From the IMG/VR virus record IMGVR_UViG_2862481585_000002, positions 25,894-89,893 of that record: DNA of 64,000 nt. One strand, written 5' to 3'. Position 1 is the stretch's first letter, and each line of letters begins with the position of its first letter. Shown one piece after another: positions 1,640 to 38,346 of this stretch. This stretch comes from a virus (lineage: Duplodnaviria; Caudoviricetes). The notes beneath the pieces were generated by a model that did not search any database, was not told the DNA's origin, and worked only from the letters and a program-made list of their open reading frames with translations. Made by a program: the position numbers and the translations under genes.

Positions 1640-2259
1640 TGCCCGGATACCTCACCCGGTACGCCAGTAAGGCCCTTCTGACGCTGATGACCGGCGGTGG
1701 CGAGAACGCTGCTTCGGGGACCGATCCGGTGGCTGACCGTCTGCTGAAGGCGCACCTGATCAGGCACATGGCCGAGCCGACCATCGGTGTCTGGGCACCC
1801 AAGGCATACCTGCTTTCGCTCCTGGACCAGGTCGACTCCCAAGGATCCGCGGCCGTGCGCGCCGAGATACAGGCCCGTCCAGCAGACCCGAGCGGCTCGC
1901 TGTATCTGGCGCTGTGCACTTCCAATCCCGGCAACATGGCTACGGGTTTGTCCAGCGAGTTGACCGCAGTTGGCTACCAGCGTCAGGCCGTTCAAATGTC
2001 GGCTCCGAAGAACGGGGCGGCCTTCGTCGTGGAGTCAGCAACACCTGCCCAGGCGTCCCTGTCCAGCAGCGTGGTCTTCGGTCCCTTCACCGACGCCACT
2101 GGATCCGGTGGTGCCGTGACGCACATGGCGCTGGTCACCGCAGCGACCGGCACAGACATTGCGGTCCTCGCGGTGTGGCCCCTGGACTCTCCGGTCACCG
2201 CAGCTCAGGGCGAGTCCTTGCTGGCGTCGGCCGGCACACTCACGATCAAGGTGGACTGA
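1639..2259 (+). CDS. Virion structural protein, paralogue 1 (small fibre/decoration-like family)
   Basis: TGATG coupling; LYLAL..GYQRQ..VVFGPFT..THMAL..VW.LD.PV.A motifs shared with next gene. Confidence 0.7.
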   Translation: MPGYLTRYASKALLTLMTGGGENAASGTDPVADRLLKAHLIRHMAEPTIGVWAPKAYLLSLLDQVDSQGSAAVRAEIQARPADPSGSLYLALCTSNPGNMATGLSSELTAVGYQRQAVQMSAPKNGAAFVVESATPAQASLSSSVVFGPFTDATGSGGAVTHMALVTAATGTDIAVLAVWPLDSPVTAAQGESLLASAGTLTIKVD

Positions 2260-2879
2260 TGGCGGGATATCTGACCCAGGTCGCGGAGCGTGCTGCGCTC
2301 CAGCTCGTGACGTCCACTGCCACCACGGCGCAGGTACCGTCCCCCACCGTGTTGCGGTCGTACCTCGTCAAGCTGTACCAGCAACAGGGGCTGTCGGGGG
2401 TCGCCTTCTACTTGCCTGTGGCCTTCCTAAACGAGTTTTCGGCGCAGACCAAGGCCGACACTAGCGGCGCCTGGCTGAACGGGCTCACCACCGGCCGCAC
2501 AGACGGTACGGGCACGCTGTACCTGGCTCTGCTGACCAGTGATCCGGGCCGGCGGACGGCGATGACCGACATGGCGGCCGTCGAGATCACCGCCACCGGG
2601 TACAGCCGGCAGCCGCTGCCTTTCTCCGTGGCCACGTCACCACTTGGCGGCGGGTCGAGCGTCAGCAATTCGGCCCCCGTGTTCTTTGGACCGTTCACGG
2701 CCAGTGGGGGAATGGGAGCCGTCGCCACACACGCAGCGCTGGTCAGCGCGGCCACGGGCACGGGCGGTGGGGTGATGGCGGTCTGGCAACTCGACACACC
2801 TGTTTCCGCCTCGCAGAACGAGAACCTCATGCTGAGCACGGCTGGCTTGGCAGTTGGGTTGGACTCATGGCAGAACTGA
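2259..2879 (+). CDS. Virion structural protein, paralogue 2
   Basis: TGATG coupling at 2257-2261 (MAGYLTQ..); same motif series as upstream gene. Confidence 0.7.
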   Translation: MAGYLTQVAERAALQLVTSTATTAQVPSPTVLRSYLVKLYQQQGLSGVAFYLPVAFLNEFSAQTKADTSGAWLNGLTTGRTDGTGTLYLALLTSDPGRRTAMTDMAAVEITATGYSRQPLPFSVATSPLGGGSSVSNSAPVFFGPFTASGGMGAVATHAALVSAATGTGGGVMAVWQLDTPVSASQNENLMLSTAGLAVGLDSWQN

Positions 2880-3685
2880 CTAGGCTCCTCTCTCGAATAC
2901 GCGGAGAGCTAGGCGACTTCGGCACCAGTTTCCGCGACGTGCTCTCTGGGACAGGAGAGCTGACGGATTACGACCTGAGCGCGGTCAACGTCACCCTGAC
3001 CCGCGTCAGCGTGCTGAACGGCGGGACGCTGACCGACCTGGTAGTCGGCACCGACTACCGTGTGGACGGGCGCGAGGGTCGCGTCACGCTCCTCGGCAGC
3101 CGCGCTCCACTCCCACTCGGCCAGGTCCTCATCGTTGAGGGCGCGGCTGCCGGCATGTTCACCGACGAGGAACTCACCCAGCACCTGCGCGACGCCGAGC
3201 TCCAGCACTGCCACAACAGGCACGTCACGGTCAGGTACCGCAGCAAGAACGGGTTCATCCGCTACGCCGATGAGCCGCTCACGCTGGAGAACCTGCCGGA
3301 TGTCGAGGAGCTGCCGGTCGTACTGCTCACCGTCATCAACGCCCTCTGGGCGGTGGCGACGGACGCTTCGTCGGACGTGAACATATCCACGGGCGAGGGC
3401 ACCCACGTCGACCGCGGACAGCGATACACGCAGGTCCTTCACCAGATCTCGGTCCTCACCGATCGGTACGAGGAACTCTGCCGACAGTTGAACATCGGCC
3501 TGTTCCGCATCGAAATGGCGACGCTGCGCCGTGTGTCTCGCACCACCGGCCGCTACGTGCCGATCTACGTCGACCGCGAGTTCGACGACCACGCCTACCC
3601 CGAGCGCGTCCTGCCGCAGATCGACAAGCACGACGTCGACCCGTCTGGCATCCCCAACCCGACCTATCCGGGGTGGGCTGCATGA
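2867..3685 (+). CDS. Probable head-tail adaptor/neck protein
   Basis: Position between head and tail genes; LSRIRGELGD and FTDEELTQHL motifs resemble adaptor proteins. Confidence 0.55.
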   Translation: MAELTRLLSRIRGELGDFGTSFRDVLSGTGELTDYDLSAVNVTLTRVSVLNGGTLTDLVVGTDYRVDGREGRVTLLGSRAPLPLGQVLIVEGAAAGMFTDEELTQHLRDAELQHCHNRHVTVRYRSKNGFIRYADEPLTLENLPDVEELPVVLLTVINALWAVATDASSDVNISTGEGTHVDRGQRYTQVLHQISVLTDRYEELCRQLNIGLFRIEMATLRRVSRTTGRYVPIYVDREFDDHAYPERVLPQIDKHDVDPSGIPNPTYPGWAA

Positions 3686-25535: not shown

Positions 25536-26552
25536 GTGCCCGTACAAGGAGCACAGTTGGCCATCCATATCGCTGTCGCCGGGGCCGGTCCGGTCGACAA
25601 GAGCACCGTCACCGAACTTCTCGACGACTGGCTCGGCATCGACGCCAACGGCAAGCCCACCACCGACGAAGAGGTCTTTCTCGTCCTCCCGGCCGCCGCG
25701 GAACACGTCACCCCCGCCGTGAAGGCGGTCTACAACTGGTCCGGGGAAGTCGACCCCGAGATCCCCTACACCGCCGTCGTCGCCCAGACCCTCGACAAGG
25801 CCTCCAAGGTCATCCGCGACAACGCCGAAAGCGCCGAACCGGCCCGCGACGGCGAGGTCTACACCGTCCTCGGTCGCACGCTCGCCGATCGTCTCACCGG
25901 CGACCGCTTCCTCCTCGTTGCTGGCGGCCAGGACGACGAGGATCTGGCCGACCTGGTCGGCTACTGCCACGACGAGGACATCACCGTCCTCGACCTGCGC
26001 GACGCACTGAAGCAGATCACCCCGCCCGAGCCCGAGGCCGACAACGCCGAAGAGAGCGCGGACCAGGTCGACGAGAAGCCGGCCCCCGAGGAAGAGGCCG
26101 AGGCCGACGAAGAGCCCTGTGAGGGTGGCACTCAGACCCTCGTCCCCCTTCCGCAGCCGCAGCCGGCCGCGACCCTGGAGGACGAGGTGGCAGCGGCACA
26201 CCACCGGATCACGGCCGCCGACCCGAAGGGTATTCAGGGCGTCATTGCCGTCCTGGAGGACGTCACCCACCACCTGCGCCTGGTGGACGAGTCGAACGCC
26301 GCCGCCAACCTCGCCGCTCCCCGGTACCGGCCGATCACCGAGCGGTCGATCCAAGGGCTCGAATGGGCCAAGGCCCTCCAGTACGACGGCCTGAAGCCCG
26401 TGACGTCCGCGGCGGAGCCGGAGGAGCCTCAGCCGGCGAAGCGGAGCAGCGGCAAGGTCCGCAAGGAGTGGTTCAACCCCGAGACGGAGCGGTGGGAGCC
26501 GCTGCGAGGCCGACCGCGCAAGGGAGTCGAGATCCGCCCGGTCGCTGCCTGA
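25536..26552 (+). CDS. Hypothetical acidic protein, first early gene
   Basis: GC3-rich ORF; start may instead be TTG at 25557 after AAGGAG. Confidence 0.75.
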   Translation: MPVQGAQLAIHIAVAGAGPVDKSTVTELLDDWLGIDANGKPTTDEEVFLVLPAAAEHVTPAVKAVYNWSGEVDPEIPYTAVVAQTLDKASKVIRDNAESAEPARDGEVYTVLGRTLADRLTGDRFLLVAGGQDDEDLADLVGYCHDEDITVLDLRDALKQITPPEPEADNAEESADQVDEKPAPEEEAEADEEPCEGGTQTLVPLPQPQPAATLEDEVAAAHHRITAADPKGIQGVIAVLEDVTHHLRLVDESNAAANLAAPRYRPITERSIQGLEWAKALQYDGLKPVTSAAEPEEPQPAKRSSGKVRKEWFNPETERWEPLRGRPRKGVEIRPVAA

Positions 26553-27896: not shown

Positions 27897-28586
27897 GTGC
27901 AGACCGCCGAGCCACAGACCAGGGACGAGAGCCTGGTCTGGCGCACCGCCCGCATCCCGGTGAAGCACTGGGGCCGCGGCATCGAGGACCTCAACCAAAT
28001 GAACCCCGAGGTCCGGACGACCGTCGAGCGCTTCATCGCGACGTGGCTCCAGCGCTACATCCCGCTCGACGCGACCATGGCCCAACTCCCGGAGGATCGC
28101 AGCCTTGTCGGCAAGGGGCTGCTCCTCTTCGGCAACGCGGGCACCGGCAAGACGACAACCGCGGCCGGCGTCGCCACCACCATCCGGCGCCACTACGGCG
28201 CAGTGGTCTTCTTCGTCCCCTTCGCCGACTACATCCAGGCCCTGATCGACCACGGCCGCTGGCGGGAGCTCTACCAGGCCACGGGCGACGAGTTCGCCCG
28301 CGAGAAGTTCCTGGCGCTCCAGAAGCTGCTGGACAAGGTGCTCACCTGCCCGCTGGTCGTCCTCGACGACATGGGCAAGGAGCACCACACCTCCAGCGGC
28401 TTCGCAGCCGACGTCTTCGACGCCCTCATCCGCGGCCGGCACCGCAACGGCCGCCCCACCATCCTGACCAGCAACAACCGTCCGGGCGACTGGGACAAGA
28501 CCTACAACGCCTCGATGCAGTCATTCCTCACCGAAGCCTGCGAGGTCGTCCCCATGGCCGGAAGGGACCACCGCCGTGGCGCATAA
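27897..28586 (+). CDS. DnaC/IstB-like AAA+ helicase loader
   Basis: Walker A GNAGTGKT, Walker B LVVLDDMGKE, R....PTILTSN; AAGGAGG RBS before GTG 27897. Confidence 0.9.
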   Translation: MQTAEPQTRDESLVWRTARIPVKHWGRGIEDLNQMNPEVRTTVERFIATWLQRYIPLDATMAQLPEDRSLVGKGLLLFGNAGTGKTTTAAGVATTIRRHYGAVVFFVPFADYIQALIDHGRWRELYQATGDEFAREKFLALQKLLDKVLTCPLVVLDDMGKEHHTSSGFAADVFDALIRGRHRNGRPTILTSNNRPGDWDKTYNASMQSFLTEACEVVPMAGRDHRRGA

Positions 28587-29391
28587 GCACGTCGTCATGT
28601 TCAGCAGTGGTGCCGGCTCCTGGGCGGCGGCCCGGCGCGTGGTCGAGCAGCACGGCAACGAGAACCTCTACCTCGTCTTCTCCGATGTCAAGGGCGACAA
28701 CCCCAGCCCCCACGCCGGCGAAGACAAGGACAACTACCGCTTCCTGCGCCAGGCGGCCTGGGACCTGGGCGGCCAACTGGTCTGGCTGACCGAGGGACGC
28801 GACATCTGGCAGGTCTTCCGGGACGACCGGTTCCTCGGCAACACCCGCCTCGCCAACTGCTCGAAGTTCCTCAAGCAACGGCCAGCGCGTGAATGGCTGG
28901 AGGCCCACTGCGACCCAGACGAGACCACCGTCTACGTCGGCATCGACTGGAGCGAAGCACACCGCCTGCCGGCCATCGAGCGCTCCTACCAGCCCTACAA
29001 GGCCGTCGCCCCGCTCTGCGAGCCGCCCTACCTCGACAAGGAAGACATCCTGGAGCAGCTCCGGGAACGCGGCATCAAGCCGCCCCGCCTCTACGACATG
29101 GGCTTCGCCCACGCCAACTGTGGCGGCTTCTGCGTCCGCTCCGGTCAGGCCCAGTTCAAGAACCTGCTGAAGGTCATGCCAGAGCGCTACGCCTATCACG
29201 AGCAGCAGGAGCAGGCCCTGCGCAACTACCTCGGCAAGGACGTCGCCATCCTCCGGGACCGGCGCGGCGGGACCACCAAGCCCATGACGCTGACGGACTT
29301 CCGCCAGCGCGTCGAGTCCGAGCAGATCAACGTCGACCCGTACGACATCGGCGGCTGCGGCTGCTTCGTCGAGGAAGAGAACGCCGCGTGA
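28576..29391 (+). CDS. PAPS-reductase/PP-loop-like protein with Cys clusters
   Basis: VVMFSSGAGS PP-loop-like, CSKFLK, NCGGFCV, GGCGCF. Confidence 0.7.
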   Translation: MAHKHVVMFSSGAGSWAAARRVVEQHGNENLYLVFSDVKGDNPSPHAGEDKDNYRFLRQAAWDLGGQLVWLTEGRDIWQVFRDDRFLGNTRLANCSKFLKQRPAREWLEAHCDPDETTVYVGIDWSEAHRLPAIERSYQPYKAVAPLCEPPYLDKEDILEQLRERGIKPPRLYDMGFAHANCGGFCVRSGQAQFKNLLKVMPERYAYHEQQEQALRNYLGKDVAILRDRRGGTTKPMTLTDFRQRVESEQINVDPYDIGGCGCFVEEENAA

Positions 29392-36076: not shown

Positions 36077-36934
36077 ATGGCCCGAGGCACCATCGACGAC
36101 ATCTTCGACGAGGAGGAGACGACCTCCCGCCGGCCGGGACGCAGCCGGCGAGGCGCGCTCGACGAGGACGACGCCCCGAAGACGCGACGCGGCCGAAAGG
36201 CTCAGGGCCGCGACGCCTTCGACGAGGACGACGACGAGACCCCCCGCAAGGGCAGGGAGCGCACCAACTCCGCCCGCAAGCAGGGTGCGGCATCCGGCTG
36301 GGACGCCTTCGACTCGGTCGCCGGCAGCGGCGGACAGGACTTCGAGGCCAAGAACGAGATGCGCCTGGAGATCACCAAGGATCCCCAGCTCATCCGGCTG
36401 CTGGAGCCCGAGCCGTTCGACAGCTACGAGTACCACTACGTCCGCGAGATCACCTCCGGCAAGCGCTCCTTCCGAGGACTCGCGCCGGCCGACGACTGCC
36501 CGCTCTGCGACGACCTCGACCACTACGGCCGCAAGGTCGCCACCTTCAACGTGGCCGTCTGGGACGAGGACGACGAGAAGTGGGCCCACAAGGTCTGGGA
36601 GGTCGGCATCCGTGCTGCCCGAACCCTCCAGGCCATCGCCAAGGACCCCAAGAAGGTCGGCAAGGACAACGTCGGCGACCTCACCTCCCCGCAGCTCTAC
36701 ATCGCCGTCCACAAGACCGGCAAGGGCACCAAGACCGAGTACCACGTCGAGGCAGTCAAGGCCCGCGACGTCGAGTCCGACTGGGACGCCGACGAGCTCA
36801 CCGACGAGGACTACGAGCGACTGTCCAAGTCCCTCTATTCCGACGCCTGGGAGCGCCACTGCACCCGCGCCGAGCTGGAGGCCGCCGTACAGAAGGTCCT
36901 CAACGGCGTGGACGACGACGAGGACGACGACTAG
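36077..36934 (+). CDS. Probable gp32-like single-stranded DNA-binding protein
   Basis: IRLLE..PF..Y.YHYV, DCPLC, K.GKG.KTEY, acidic C-tail DDDEDDD. Confidence 0.7.
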   Translation: MARGTIDDIFDEEETTSRRPGRSRRGALDEDDAPKTRRGRKAQGRDAFDEDDDETPRKGRERTNSARKQGAASGWDAFDSVAGSGGQDFEAKNEMRLEITKDPQLIRLLEPEPFDSYEYHYVREITSGKRSFRGLAPADDCPLCDDLDHYGRKVATFNVAVWDEDDEKWAHKVWEVGIRAARTLQAIAKDPKKVGKDNVGDLTSPQLYIAVHKTGKGTKTEYHVEAVKARDVESDWDADELTDEDYERLSKSLYSDAWERHCTRAELEAAVQKVLNGVDDDEDDD

Positions 36935-36991: not shown

Positions 36992-37011
36992 ACCCCTCGC
37001 GAAGGAAACGC

Positions 37012-38346
37012 ATGCCGATCCTCGGCCTGTGCGCGGGATTCGGCGGCCTGGAAATCGCAGTAGAGGAACTCACGGGCGAGCCCGTCGCCTACGTGGCAGA
37101 AGTCGACCCCTACGCCGCCCAGATCCTCGCGCACCACCACCCAGAGATCCCCAACCTCGGGGACATCACCTGCATCGACTGGACCGAACTGCTCGGCCAG
37201 GTCGACATCGTCTGCGCGGGATTCCCGTGCCAGGACATCTCCAACGCCGGCCACAGGAAGGGAATCGATGGCGAGAAGTCGGGCATCTGGCGCAACGTCG
37301 CAGACGCCATTCGCGTACTTCGACCCCGCCTCGTCTTCCTGGAGAACGTCAGCGCCATCGCTCGACGAGGACTCGACCGAGTACTCGGGGACCTGGCCGC
37401 GATCGGGTACGACGCGCGGTGGATGTGCTTTCGAGCTTCCGAAGTTGGAGCAGCCCACCACCGAGACAGGTGGTTCTGCGTCGCCTTCCCTACTGCCGAC
37501 GCCCCTGGCGCGGGACTGGAAGGCGGGCACAGGCAGCCAGCACGGGAAGATGAGCCGGCCGCTGAGCGAGGTAGCGCTGCTTCTGCCGGCCGAGCCTCTG
37601 CCGGCGAAGATGCTGCCGACCCCGACCGCCTCGAACCCCAACGATGGGGAGTCCTACGCCTCGTGGGAGGCACGCCGGCAGCGGAACCTGGCCAAGAAGA
37701 TCAACGGGAACGGTCAGGGAATGCCCCTGGGGATGGCAGTGAAGCTCCTGCCGACACCGAGAGCCAGCGACGGGCCCAAGGGCGGACCGAACCAGCGCGA
37801 CAGCAGCGGAAACTACACCTCGTTGCCGGGGGCGGTGACGCACCTCCTGCCGACACCCTTGGCGGCGGATTGCCGATCGTCGGCGAGCTGGAGCGCGGAC
37901 GGGAGTCCGTACACGGGAACGCGAGCGAACCCGACACTGACGGACGCGGTGAGGCACCTACTGCCGACGCCCACGGCTCGCGACGGCATGGGCGGAGCGG
38001 GACGCGCCCCCAGCTCGACTGGGGGGATGAACCTGCGCACCGTCGTCACTCTCCTCCCGAGTGGTGGGGAGAGTACTGGCCGGCCATCCACCGATGGGAA
38101 TGCATCATCGGCGTCCCGGCCCCGTACCCGACCGAGATTGGGCCCAGAGGCGGACGCCGCCTGACCTCGGCCTTCGCCGAGTGGCTGATGGGCATCCCCG
38201 GCCGCGTGACGACCGTCCCGAAGCTCAGCCGCTCCCAGCAACTCCACAAGATCGGCAACGGCGTCGTACCTCTCCAGGCCTACTCCGCCTACCGCCTGAT
38301 CCTCATCGAGCTCCTGCTCACCGAACGACTCCAGATCGCAGCCTGA
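37012..38346 (+). CDS. DNA (cytosine-5)-methyltransferase
   Basis: Motif I LCAGFGG, IV GFPCQDIS, VI LENV, VIII HHRDRWF, IX RLT..EWLMG.P, X IGNGVVP. Confidence 0.93.
   Translation: MPILGLCAGFGGLEIAVEELTGEPVAYVAEVDPYAAQILAHHHPEIPNLGDITCIDWTELLGQVDIVCAGFPCQDISNAGHRKGIDGEKSGIWRNVADAIRVLRPRLVFLENVSAIARRGLDRVLGDLAAIGYDARWMCFRASEVGAAHHRDRWFCVAFPTADAPGAGLEGGHRQPAREDEPAAERGSAASAGRASAGEDAADPDRLEPQRWGVLRLVGGTPAAEPGQEDQRERSGNAPGDGSEAPADTESQRRAQGRTEPARQQRKLHLVAGGGDAPPADTLGGGLPIVGELERGRESVHGNASEPDTDGRGEAPTADAHGSRRHGRSGTRPQLDWGDEPAHRRHSPPEWWGEYWPAIHRWECIIGVPAPYPTEIGPRGGRRLTSAFAEWLMGIPGRVTTVPKLSRSQQLHKIGNGVVPLQAYSAYRLILIELLLTERLQIAA
37268..38164 (+). CDS. Nested +1-frame ORF inside the MTase with five (L/M)LPTP repeats
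   Basis: ATG preceded by AGGAAGGGA; 298 codons without stop; GC3-rich codons in this frame across the repeat region. Confidence 0.65.
   Translation: MARSRASGATSQTPFAYFDPASSSWRTSAPSLDEDSTEYSGTWPRSGTTRGGCAFELPKLEQPTTETGGSASPSLLPTPLARDWKAGTGSQHGKMSRPLSEVALLLPAEPLPAKMLPTPTASNPNDGESYASWEARRQRNLAKKINGNGQGMPLGMAVKLLPTPRASDGPKGGPNQRDSSGNYTSLPGAVTHLLPTPLAADCRSSASWSADGSPYTGTRANPTLTDAVRHLLPTPTARDGMGGAGRAPSSTGGMNLRTVVTLLPSGGESTGRPSTDGNASSASRPRTRPRLGPEADAA

Follow-up and report, generated by a model that had tools for sequence, protein, structure and literature searches.

A candidate two-chain DNA cytosine-5 methyltransferase of tailed phages with target-recognition modules in a nested +1 frame

The multispecific DNA cytosine-5 (C5) methyltransferases of the Bacillus phages SPR and phi3T carry tandem modules between motifs VIII and IX. 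Other C5 enzymes are known in two pieces. In M.EcoHK31I of E. coli, which recognises YGGCCR, a small chain is encoded wholly within the gene of the large chain in another frame; the large chain is described as holding motifs I-VIII as well as X, and both chains are needed for activity (PMC2836561, PMC3404938). M.AquI (CYCGRG) is a split C5 enzyme cut in the variable region (PMC3404938), and M.SssI split in the proximal variable region is reported to complement without overlap between the fragments (PMC2836561, PMC3404938). A paper of 2025 describes out-of-frame HNH genes (ShiLan domain) inside actinophage methylase genes whose own frame is free of stops, the in-frame product being predicted to loop out (PMC11855218). 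Here we describe a C5 methyltransferase locus at positions 37012 to 38346 of a stretch of 64,000 nucleotides (hereafter the window), which covers positions 25,894 to 89,893 of the IMG/VR virus record IMGVR_UViG_2862481585_000002 (Duplodnaviria; Caudoviricetes). Its main frame, alpha, encloses a second open reading frame (ORF), beta, in the +1 frame, and the comparative evidence makes it probable that the two encode the chains of one C5 methyltransferase, the nested chain carrying the recognition array. The features of the locus are as follows.

37012..38346, + strand: alpha ORF, of 444 aa plus stop when begun at the ATG at 37012; N domain, filler and C domain share one frame
37012..37488, + strand: alpha N domain with motifs I-VIII (FGG, PCQ, ENV, RDRWF), seen from PF00145, tblastn and substitution phase
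37255..37263, + strand: purine-rich, Shine-Dalgarno (SD)-like sequence AGGAAGGGA, 4 nt 5' of the beta ATG
37268..38164, + strand: beta ORF in the +1 frame, 298 aa plus stop, with an ATG start; leader, five target-recognition domain (TRD) modules and tail
37268..37488, + strand: dual-coding overlap of alpha motifs VI-VIII with the beta leader (~74 aa), seen from the stop deficit and leader homology
37489..38046, + strand: alpha filler of 186 codons, the stop-free shadow of the beta modules, seen from stop counts, substitution phase and the confidence of the structure model
37490..38051, + strand: five LLPTP-headed beta modules, with heads at 37490, 37610, 37745, 37844 and 37958
38047..38343, + strand: alpha C domain with WWGEYWPAIHRWE, then RRLTSAFAEWLMG (motif IX) and GNGVVP (motif X), seen from tblastn, phrog_1008 and the confidence of the structure model
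38052..38164, + strand: beta tail, overlying the alpha C domain out of frame, with substitutions that keep to the alpha pattern

The beta ORF thus lies wholly inside the alpha ORF in a different frame, its stop TGA (38162-38164) falling within the alpha codons CTG ACC of RRLTS. This is the nesting described for M.EcoHK31I, which the original prediction, made from the letters of the window alone, had fairly named as a precedent (PMC2836561, PMC3404938). The contents of the nested chain differ, however. In M.EcoHK31I, as its architecture is described, the small chain is motif IX only and the TRD stays in the large chain, whereas in the window motif IX belongs to alpha and it is the array plus a leader that is nested. 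A cyanophage relative, L010 (locus numbers of this form are ours), does have a nested chain which carries motif IX, the likeness drawn here being one of described architecture. The arrangement described for M.AquI, which separates a chain with motifs I-VIII from a second with TRD plus IX-X, was found by frame in 23 of 91 related loci, in which the C-terminal motifs follow beta (Samy gp49/50 and RemusLoopin gp34/35 are examples); the window departs from it in keeping IX-X on the catalytic chain and in having its second ORF fully nested. With the SPR and phi3T enzymes the locus shares several tandem recognition modules in a phage C5 enzyme, but theirs lie in a single chain and a single frame. 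The HNH insert of the ShiLan methylases, as presented in its source, is a mobile homing endonuclease with a disjunct distribution, whereas the nested ORF of the window would be the recognition region of the enzyme itself. Searches of the literature turned up no account of C5 methyltransferases of actinophages with a nested TRD chain.

The alpha chain looks like a C5 methyltransferase at its two ends only. FGG, PCQ, ENV and RDRWF are present in the N part, so that motifs I, IV (PCQ), VI (ENV) and VIII can be recognised there, and the C part contains WWGEYW followed by motifs IX (RRLTSAFAEWLMG) and X (GNGVVP); the numbers I, IV, VI, VIII, IX and X were assigned by eye from the sequence. PF00145 covers only residues 3-159 (E 6.3e-35), and alpha also matches phrog_363 (4e-63) and phrog_116 (6.7e-61). 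By tblastn, relatives of the N domain occur in 1632 phage records and relatives of the C domain in 536. Between the two parts lie 186 codons rich in Ala, Asp, Gly and Arg. The TRD that C5 enzymes carry between motifs VIII and IX is absent from this chain, alpha residues 160-345 being filler and the modules lying in the +1 frame. An AlphaFold2 (AF2) model of alpha agrees with this division: by the predicted local distance difference test (pLDDT), residues 1-165 and 345-444 mostly score above 90 (85-96 from residue 351) and residues 168-340 mostly below 50. The best Foldseek match of the model is M.HhaI (1fjx_A, E 4.5e-13, 164 columns). G+C content at third codon positions (GC3) changes frame in the same way: the main frame has 0.82-0.92 at 37010-37250 and again from 38090, the nested frame 0.80-0.90 at 37430-37950. 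In the middle of alpha, in other words, the nested repeats cast their shadow out of frame, and what is read there is LLPTP-type sequence taken a base too early. The original prediction had described just this, C5 motifs around low-complexity filler and a nested +1 ORF with its own SD-like sequence, ATG, GC3-rich codons and five modules, and the Pfam match, ORF list, motif count and GC3 values agree with it.

The five module heads, CTSCTRCCGACVCC, begin at the positions listed above, every one in the nested phase. They share the form (L/M)LPTPxAx(D/N), for which the DNA pattern gave 5 matches against 0.75 expected, and none of 100 shuffles reached 5. Beta has no Pfam match, but it matches phrog_1008, annotated 'DNA methyltransferase', over profile positions 63-215 (E 3.8e-37); positions 225-315 of the same profile match the alpha C domain instead. 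PHROG 116 and 363 correspond to the N domain and 1008 to TRD plus C, so that in the window a single family, 1008, is spread over two frames. Database relatives of beta number at least 2639, and a Pfam domain is absent from all 120 of the matches that were listed and checked for one. Module number varies among close relatives, beta being 298 aa long in the window and 214-252 aa in L014-L019. An array that expands and shuffles by repeat recombination had been proposed for this locus; the difference in module number stands, whereas recombination as its cause is not borne out by the DNA repeats among the modules, which are just 15-40 nt long and 60-80% identical.

A scan of IMG/VR for the pattern found 373 relatives among 568 candidate stretches, of which the best 80 were kept. 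The full set of 94 sequences, less three without a C-domain match (L010, L076 and L090), gave 91 classified loci. With beta as query, tblastn found 116 phage records, from phages of Mycobacterium, Arthrobacter, Gordonia, Streptomyces, Rhodococcus, Synechococcus and Microcystis, and all 13 annotated phage loci that were fetched have the N domain in frame 0 and beta-like sequence in +1. The nested ORF is unannotated in MidnightRain, Maddy2, Shauna1, Darolandstone and Gudmit, whose records give a single long ORF called 'DNA methylase' or 'hypothetical', as had been suspected of other actinophages; others of the annotated loci are recorded as two adjoining 'DNA methylase' genes. The C-terminal motifs are in the N-domain frame in 68 of the 91 loci and in the beta frame in 23. 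The first TRD module is in +1 throughout, except in L009, L075 and L092/L093; L009 has one frame-0 match to the regular expression and then three +1 modules, and in L092/L093 the expression missed one GLPTP module which frame translation places in +1. Clustering by N-domain identity gave 73 clusters at 90% and 38 at 70%, the latter comprising 27 with the C domain purely in frame 0, 6 with it purely in the beta frame and 5 with both. Conversion of the frame-0 layout into the beta-frame layout by an indel near the TRD/C junction can be inferred from these sequences; the reverse is probably disfavoured because the indel would meet stops.

Some of these loci show peculiarities of their own. The record of phiBT1 (L012) annotates no more than gp9.1, the N-domain ORF, and comments on it 'DNA methylase may be inactive'; the +1 ORF downstream with TRD and C domain (~2254-3042 of the locus) is unannotated. 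The N domain of L007 (Darolandstone) has an insertion of ~60 aa between motifs IV and VI and that of L060 one of ~100 aa after ENV; the alpha frame is open across both.

The decisive comparison concerns stop codons, whose expected numbers in frame 0 were obtained by holding the beta protein fixed and resampling its synonymous codons. The 68 loci with the C domain in frame 0 contain no frame-0 stop at all between N and C domains (92-408 codons), although 181 were expected. By contrast, every one of the 23 loci with the C domain in +1 has at least one, with 93 observed in total against 105 expected. The carrier frame therefore behaves neutrally where the C domain is reached without it and stays strictly open where the C domain depends on it. 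The same holds for beta above its modules: within the N domain's final 56 codons not one of the 91 loci has a beta-frame stop (92 expected), while the upstream part of the N domain, taken as a control, has 199 against 260 expected. Even in L010, with a G+C content of 57%, there are no frame-0 stops against 5.46 expected (P 0.0005); here motif IX is in beta and motif X back in alpha. For the window by itself the probability that the main frame stays open across the nested region is ~0.09, and it is consequently the comparative set rather than the window that is decisive. Stops in the nested frame of close homologues, which would have spoken against a nested gene, were not found. Taken across the loci, the stop counts show a conserved layout that is not due to chance and in which both frames are kept open by selection.

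Which protein is under selection in which segment was judged from the phase of substitutions between the window and five relatives (L014-L017 and L019), counted by alpha codon position.

N-only part: position 1 0.077, position 2 0.033, position 3 0.155
overlap: position 1 0.059, position 2 0.005, position 3 0.143
middle: position 1 0.310, position 2 0.122, position 3 0.100
C part under the beta tail: position 1 0.125, position 2 0.050, position 3 0.173
C-only part: position 1 0.107, position 2 0.062, position 3 0.244

The peak in the middle falls on the third codon position of beta, so that it is alpha N, the beta modules and alpha C whose protein sequences are kept. Within this set of relatives, protein-level selection is thus shown, by its trace in the substitutions, to run alpha, then beta, then alpha along the gene.

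The start of beta is also conserved. An ATG or GTG is found 58-82 codons before the end of the N domain in 85 of the 91 loci, mostly behind an SD-like motif, which agrees with the claim that the nested ORF has a start of its own. Two placements occur, one over the G.DDE segment after motif IV and the other at ENV, and in loci of the second type alpha is longer by ~23 codons, which follow ENV. Counted from the start to the first LLPTP, the median length is nevertheless 74 and 70 aa in the two types, although the distance from ENV to the end of the N domain differs by 23 codons. Codon choice points in the same direction. Of the 42 loci in which ENV is 60 or more codons ahead of the N-domain end and beta starts at or just after it, 24 spell the Asn of ENV with the minority codon AAT; of the 48 with ENV nearer to that end and the beta start upstream, only 3 do so. 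The background use of NAT is 17.6%. This skew, a codon test that is not circular, supports selection for the beta start. The additional alpha codons of the ENV type (for example in L020, L035 and L061) often show a C-P-x-C pattern (EPCPWCVGD), and the DNA of this segment also encodes the WNPARGVWET part of the beta leader.

Several observations bear on whether the leader is a protein segment at all or only motifs VI-VIII read out of frame. Profiles built from the leaders of either start type can be aligned with each other over 29 columns (P 2.7e-4), whereas their alpha-frame shadows align over 6 columns only, at the NV of ENV, which lies late in one shadow alignment and at the first positions of the other. 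Longer proteins gave 153 matches at E <=1e-5, and in several of them the leader is in frame, following motif VIII immediately and preceding the first LLPTP. The leader of L020 matches residues 210-258 of one such fused protein, P0146, after its motif VIII with 50% identity (E 4e-12), and the leader of the window matches the same region at E 0.011. A hidden Markov model built from 66 distinct leaders was applied to 120 matches of similar length and to 120 longer ones, with the following outcome.

120 similar-length matches: N-terminal leader 94; N domain plus in-frame leader 0; leader elsewhere 1; N domain without leader 0; neither 25
120 longer matches: N-terminal leader 6; N domain plus in-frame leader 8; leader elsewhere 9; N domain without leader 70; neither 27

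At least 8 of the 120 longer matches therefore combine an N domain with an in-frame leader. Judged from the profile alignment and the homology to fused relatives, the leader is a real protein segment. The AF2 model of beta gives residues 11-60, with four strands, a pLDDT of 83-88, which is suggestive only because conservation forced by alpha could inflate the score. Searching the ESM Atlas with the leader returned only unnamed viral and actinobacterial clusters, with scores of 0.89. For the lineages that encode core and leader in succession in one frame, duplication of the overlap is a speculative origin. In the fused Tsukamurella gene L094 a comparison of the in-frame leader with the gene's own motif VI-VIII DNA found no repeat beyond 12-nt chance matches, and a scan of viral contigs with P0146 found no locus.

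Together these results suggest the following arrangement. Alpha would be translated from 37012 in one frame to 38343, with motifs I-VIII and IX-X joined by a disordered linker of 186 residues. Beta would initiate at its own ATG at 37268 inside alpha in the +1 frame, and would consist of a leader of ~74 residues over alpha motifs VI-VIII followed by five recognition modules with LLPTPxAxD heads, which would replace the variable region (TRD) of ordinary C5 enzymes. By analogy with C5 fragments cut in the proximal variable region, alpha and beta may assemble non-covalently. The modules would set the target specificity, possibly several specificities, and the enzyme would protect phage DNA from host restriction. 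The choice of +1 may be explained by base composition. Beta codons end in G or C in ~88% of cases, so alpha codons would begin with G or C and stops would be rare; because such codons rarely form stops, the carrier frame would be cheap to keep open. Of the earlier proposal of a two-chain enzyme with a modular specificity array out of frame, the conserved nested modules, the open frames and the conserved start hold good, and the two-chain enzyme itself remains a probable reading of them.

Not all of the evidence favours a two-chain enzyme. Among the close relatives the overlap evolves with the alpha pattern (0.059, 0.005, 0.143), so that independent selection on the leader is invisible at short range, and in the extra segment, or 'insertion', of the second start type identity is higher for alpha (0.50) than for beta (0.40). 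Apart from the leader and one helix, beta is poorly modelled, with a mean pLDDT of 58.8 and most of the remainder below 60. The loci are related rather than independent, forming only 38 clusters at 70% N-domain identity. Finally, there is the behaviour of those loci in which the array is divided between the frames. In L005, L006, L008, L061, L068, L081, L083 and L088 beta holds the first 1-4 modules (at least 3 in L008) and the rest follow in the alpha frame together with the C domain, and in L075, L092 and L093 beta holds 0-1 modules (no +1 module by pattern, and one GLPTP in L092/L093 by translation). In 10 of these 11 mixed loci (L005, L006, L061, L068, L075, L081, L083, L088, L092 and L093) beta ends at a stop that is 1-2 codons short of the first LLPTP in frame 0, and a recoding site would look alike. 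The stop, TAG or TGA, is built from the rare alpha codons GTA and CTA or from CTG ACG, and the junction recurs in the forms CTG TAG ACC TGC T.. and ACC TGA CGC TGC TGC CG. It could serve as a portable junction or could signal recoding, and it also fits prompt termination of a chain that acts in trans. Hopping at this stop was considered and rejected, since matching take-off and landing codons are present in 2 of 10 loci only.

GGPNQRGS, the cassette with the highest conservation, lies in +1 in 50 loci and in frame 0 in 5; Kingsley has it in the third frame, and in 35 loci it was not found. Kingsley (L002) differs from its close relative Shauna1 (L006) by an extra frame break inside motif VIII, which puts the three parts of the gene in three frames; the break could be a real inactivating mutation or a sequencing error.

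It might be supposed that the ribosome reads the locus as one gene, starting at 37012, shifting by +1 after motif VIII and by -1 before WWGEYW, and so makes one ordinary N-TRD-C polypeptide. The selected frames run alpha, beta, alpha as they would for such a gene, 10 of 11 mixed loci end beta precisely at a module boundary, where shifty stops act, and L006 and L081 have CTG...CTG pairs that would permit a short hop. We nevertheless regard recoding as improbable. At neither junction of the window (37470-37500 and 38040-38060) is there a slippery heptamer or homopolymer to the eye, and the return point varies between lineages; programmed frameshifting should have left a slippery site or shifty stop at a fixed junction and a dispensable zero frame, and with the junctions judged by eye this combination was not seen. 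Nor would recoding need the open middle of alpha (0 against 181 stops), the open upstream beta frame (0 against 92) or the conserved beta start. It would also drop the leader, which the fused relatives retain in frame after motif VIII and which a frameshift at the end of that motif could not supply. As the leader codons of the window are the codons of motifs VI-VIII, a single pass of the ribosome cannot yield a complete N domain together with the leader. Of the arguments for two chains over recoding, this is the strongest. 'Methyltransferases' appear in PRFect's list of known frameshifting genes and were considered as a precedent but set aside, since the reference given there (its number 36) concerns, to go by its title, macrolide-induced frameshifting and not DNA methylases.

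A decaying gene, that is an ordinary methyltransferase with two compensating frameshifts and frames left open just by high G+C content, is the explanation we find hardest to credit. With 68% GC long open frames are common, the chance of ~0.09 for the window is not negligible, the record of phiBT1 calls its own copy possibly inactive and Kingsley has its additional break. A layout common to 68 of 91 loci and 32 of 38 clusters (27 pure and 5 mixed) is nevertheless hard to reconcile with decay, as are stops that are missing exactly where two chains would require it and present at neutral density elsewhere, and a pattern of purifying selection in all three segments. A further possibility is that both chains are made but work apart, alpha as a methyltransferase without a TRD, unspecific or inactive, and beta as a separate DNA-binding or regulatory protein. 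The beta model has indeed no relative of solved structure: a fold search against 48,161 chains gave a best Z of 2.4, with no meaningful match, and a profile search of solved structures with beta a single match at E 0.64, so the role given to beta rests on its position and its homology to in-frame TRD arrays. We think separate functions unlikely all the same, if less so than recoding, because the same module types occur in frame with the catalytic domain in relatives (GGPNQRGS in both frames, and the fused proteins) and because beta of 23 loci also carries motifs IX-X, which would be useless apart from a catalytic domain.

If the two-chain methyltransferase is accepted, one may speculate further, and here we are rather doubtful ourselves, that recognition cassettes act either in cis, in the alpha frame, or in trans, in the beta frame, and that short indels at module boundaries, marked by the in-phase beta stop 1-2 codons ahead of the next LLPTP, move them from one chain to the other. 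The leader, sharing its DNA with motifs VI-VIII, would then be a docking piece for a detachable specificity subunit, and phages could re-partition or exchange specificities while the core stays untouched.

By their PHROG matches the neighbours of the locus form a phage replication module with a DnaC-like loader, a DnaB-like helicase, a primase, DNA polymerase I, ribonucleotide reductase and a UvsX-like recombinase. Flanked by loader and helicase is a gene resembling phosphoadenosine phosphosulfate (PAPS) reductase (28576-29388, + strand; phrog_424, E 3.8e-56), without a Pfam match at E <=0.01, which may be a DNA-modification gene. Directly 5' of the methyltransferase a 285-aa acidic protein with a GC3 of 0.93 and no PHROG or Pfam match is encoded (36077-36931, + strand). 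Near-identical DNA to the locus was not found in the phage collection, and among the sequencing runs, all 24 DNA rows contain at most 0.10 of the sampled words, no RNA run being listed.

Should the two-chain methyltransferase prove true, many actinophage 'DNA methylase' genes would be misannotated, either as one protein with a meaningless middle or as two unexplained neighbours, with the recognition subunit missing. The family would provide a statistically strong case of long-range dual coding in double-stranded DNA phages, with a built-in control in that the carrier frame decays once the C-terminus changes frame. It would extend the curiosities of M.EcoHK31I and M.AquI to a large natural family in which a whole target-recognition array is a detachable chain, and it would be relevant to the ways in which phages vary their anti-restriction methylation, as well as to engineering methyltransferases that are split and can be retargeted.

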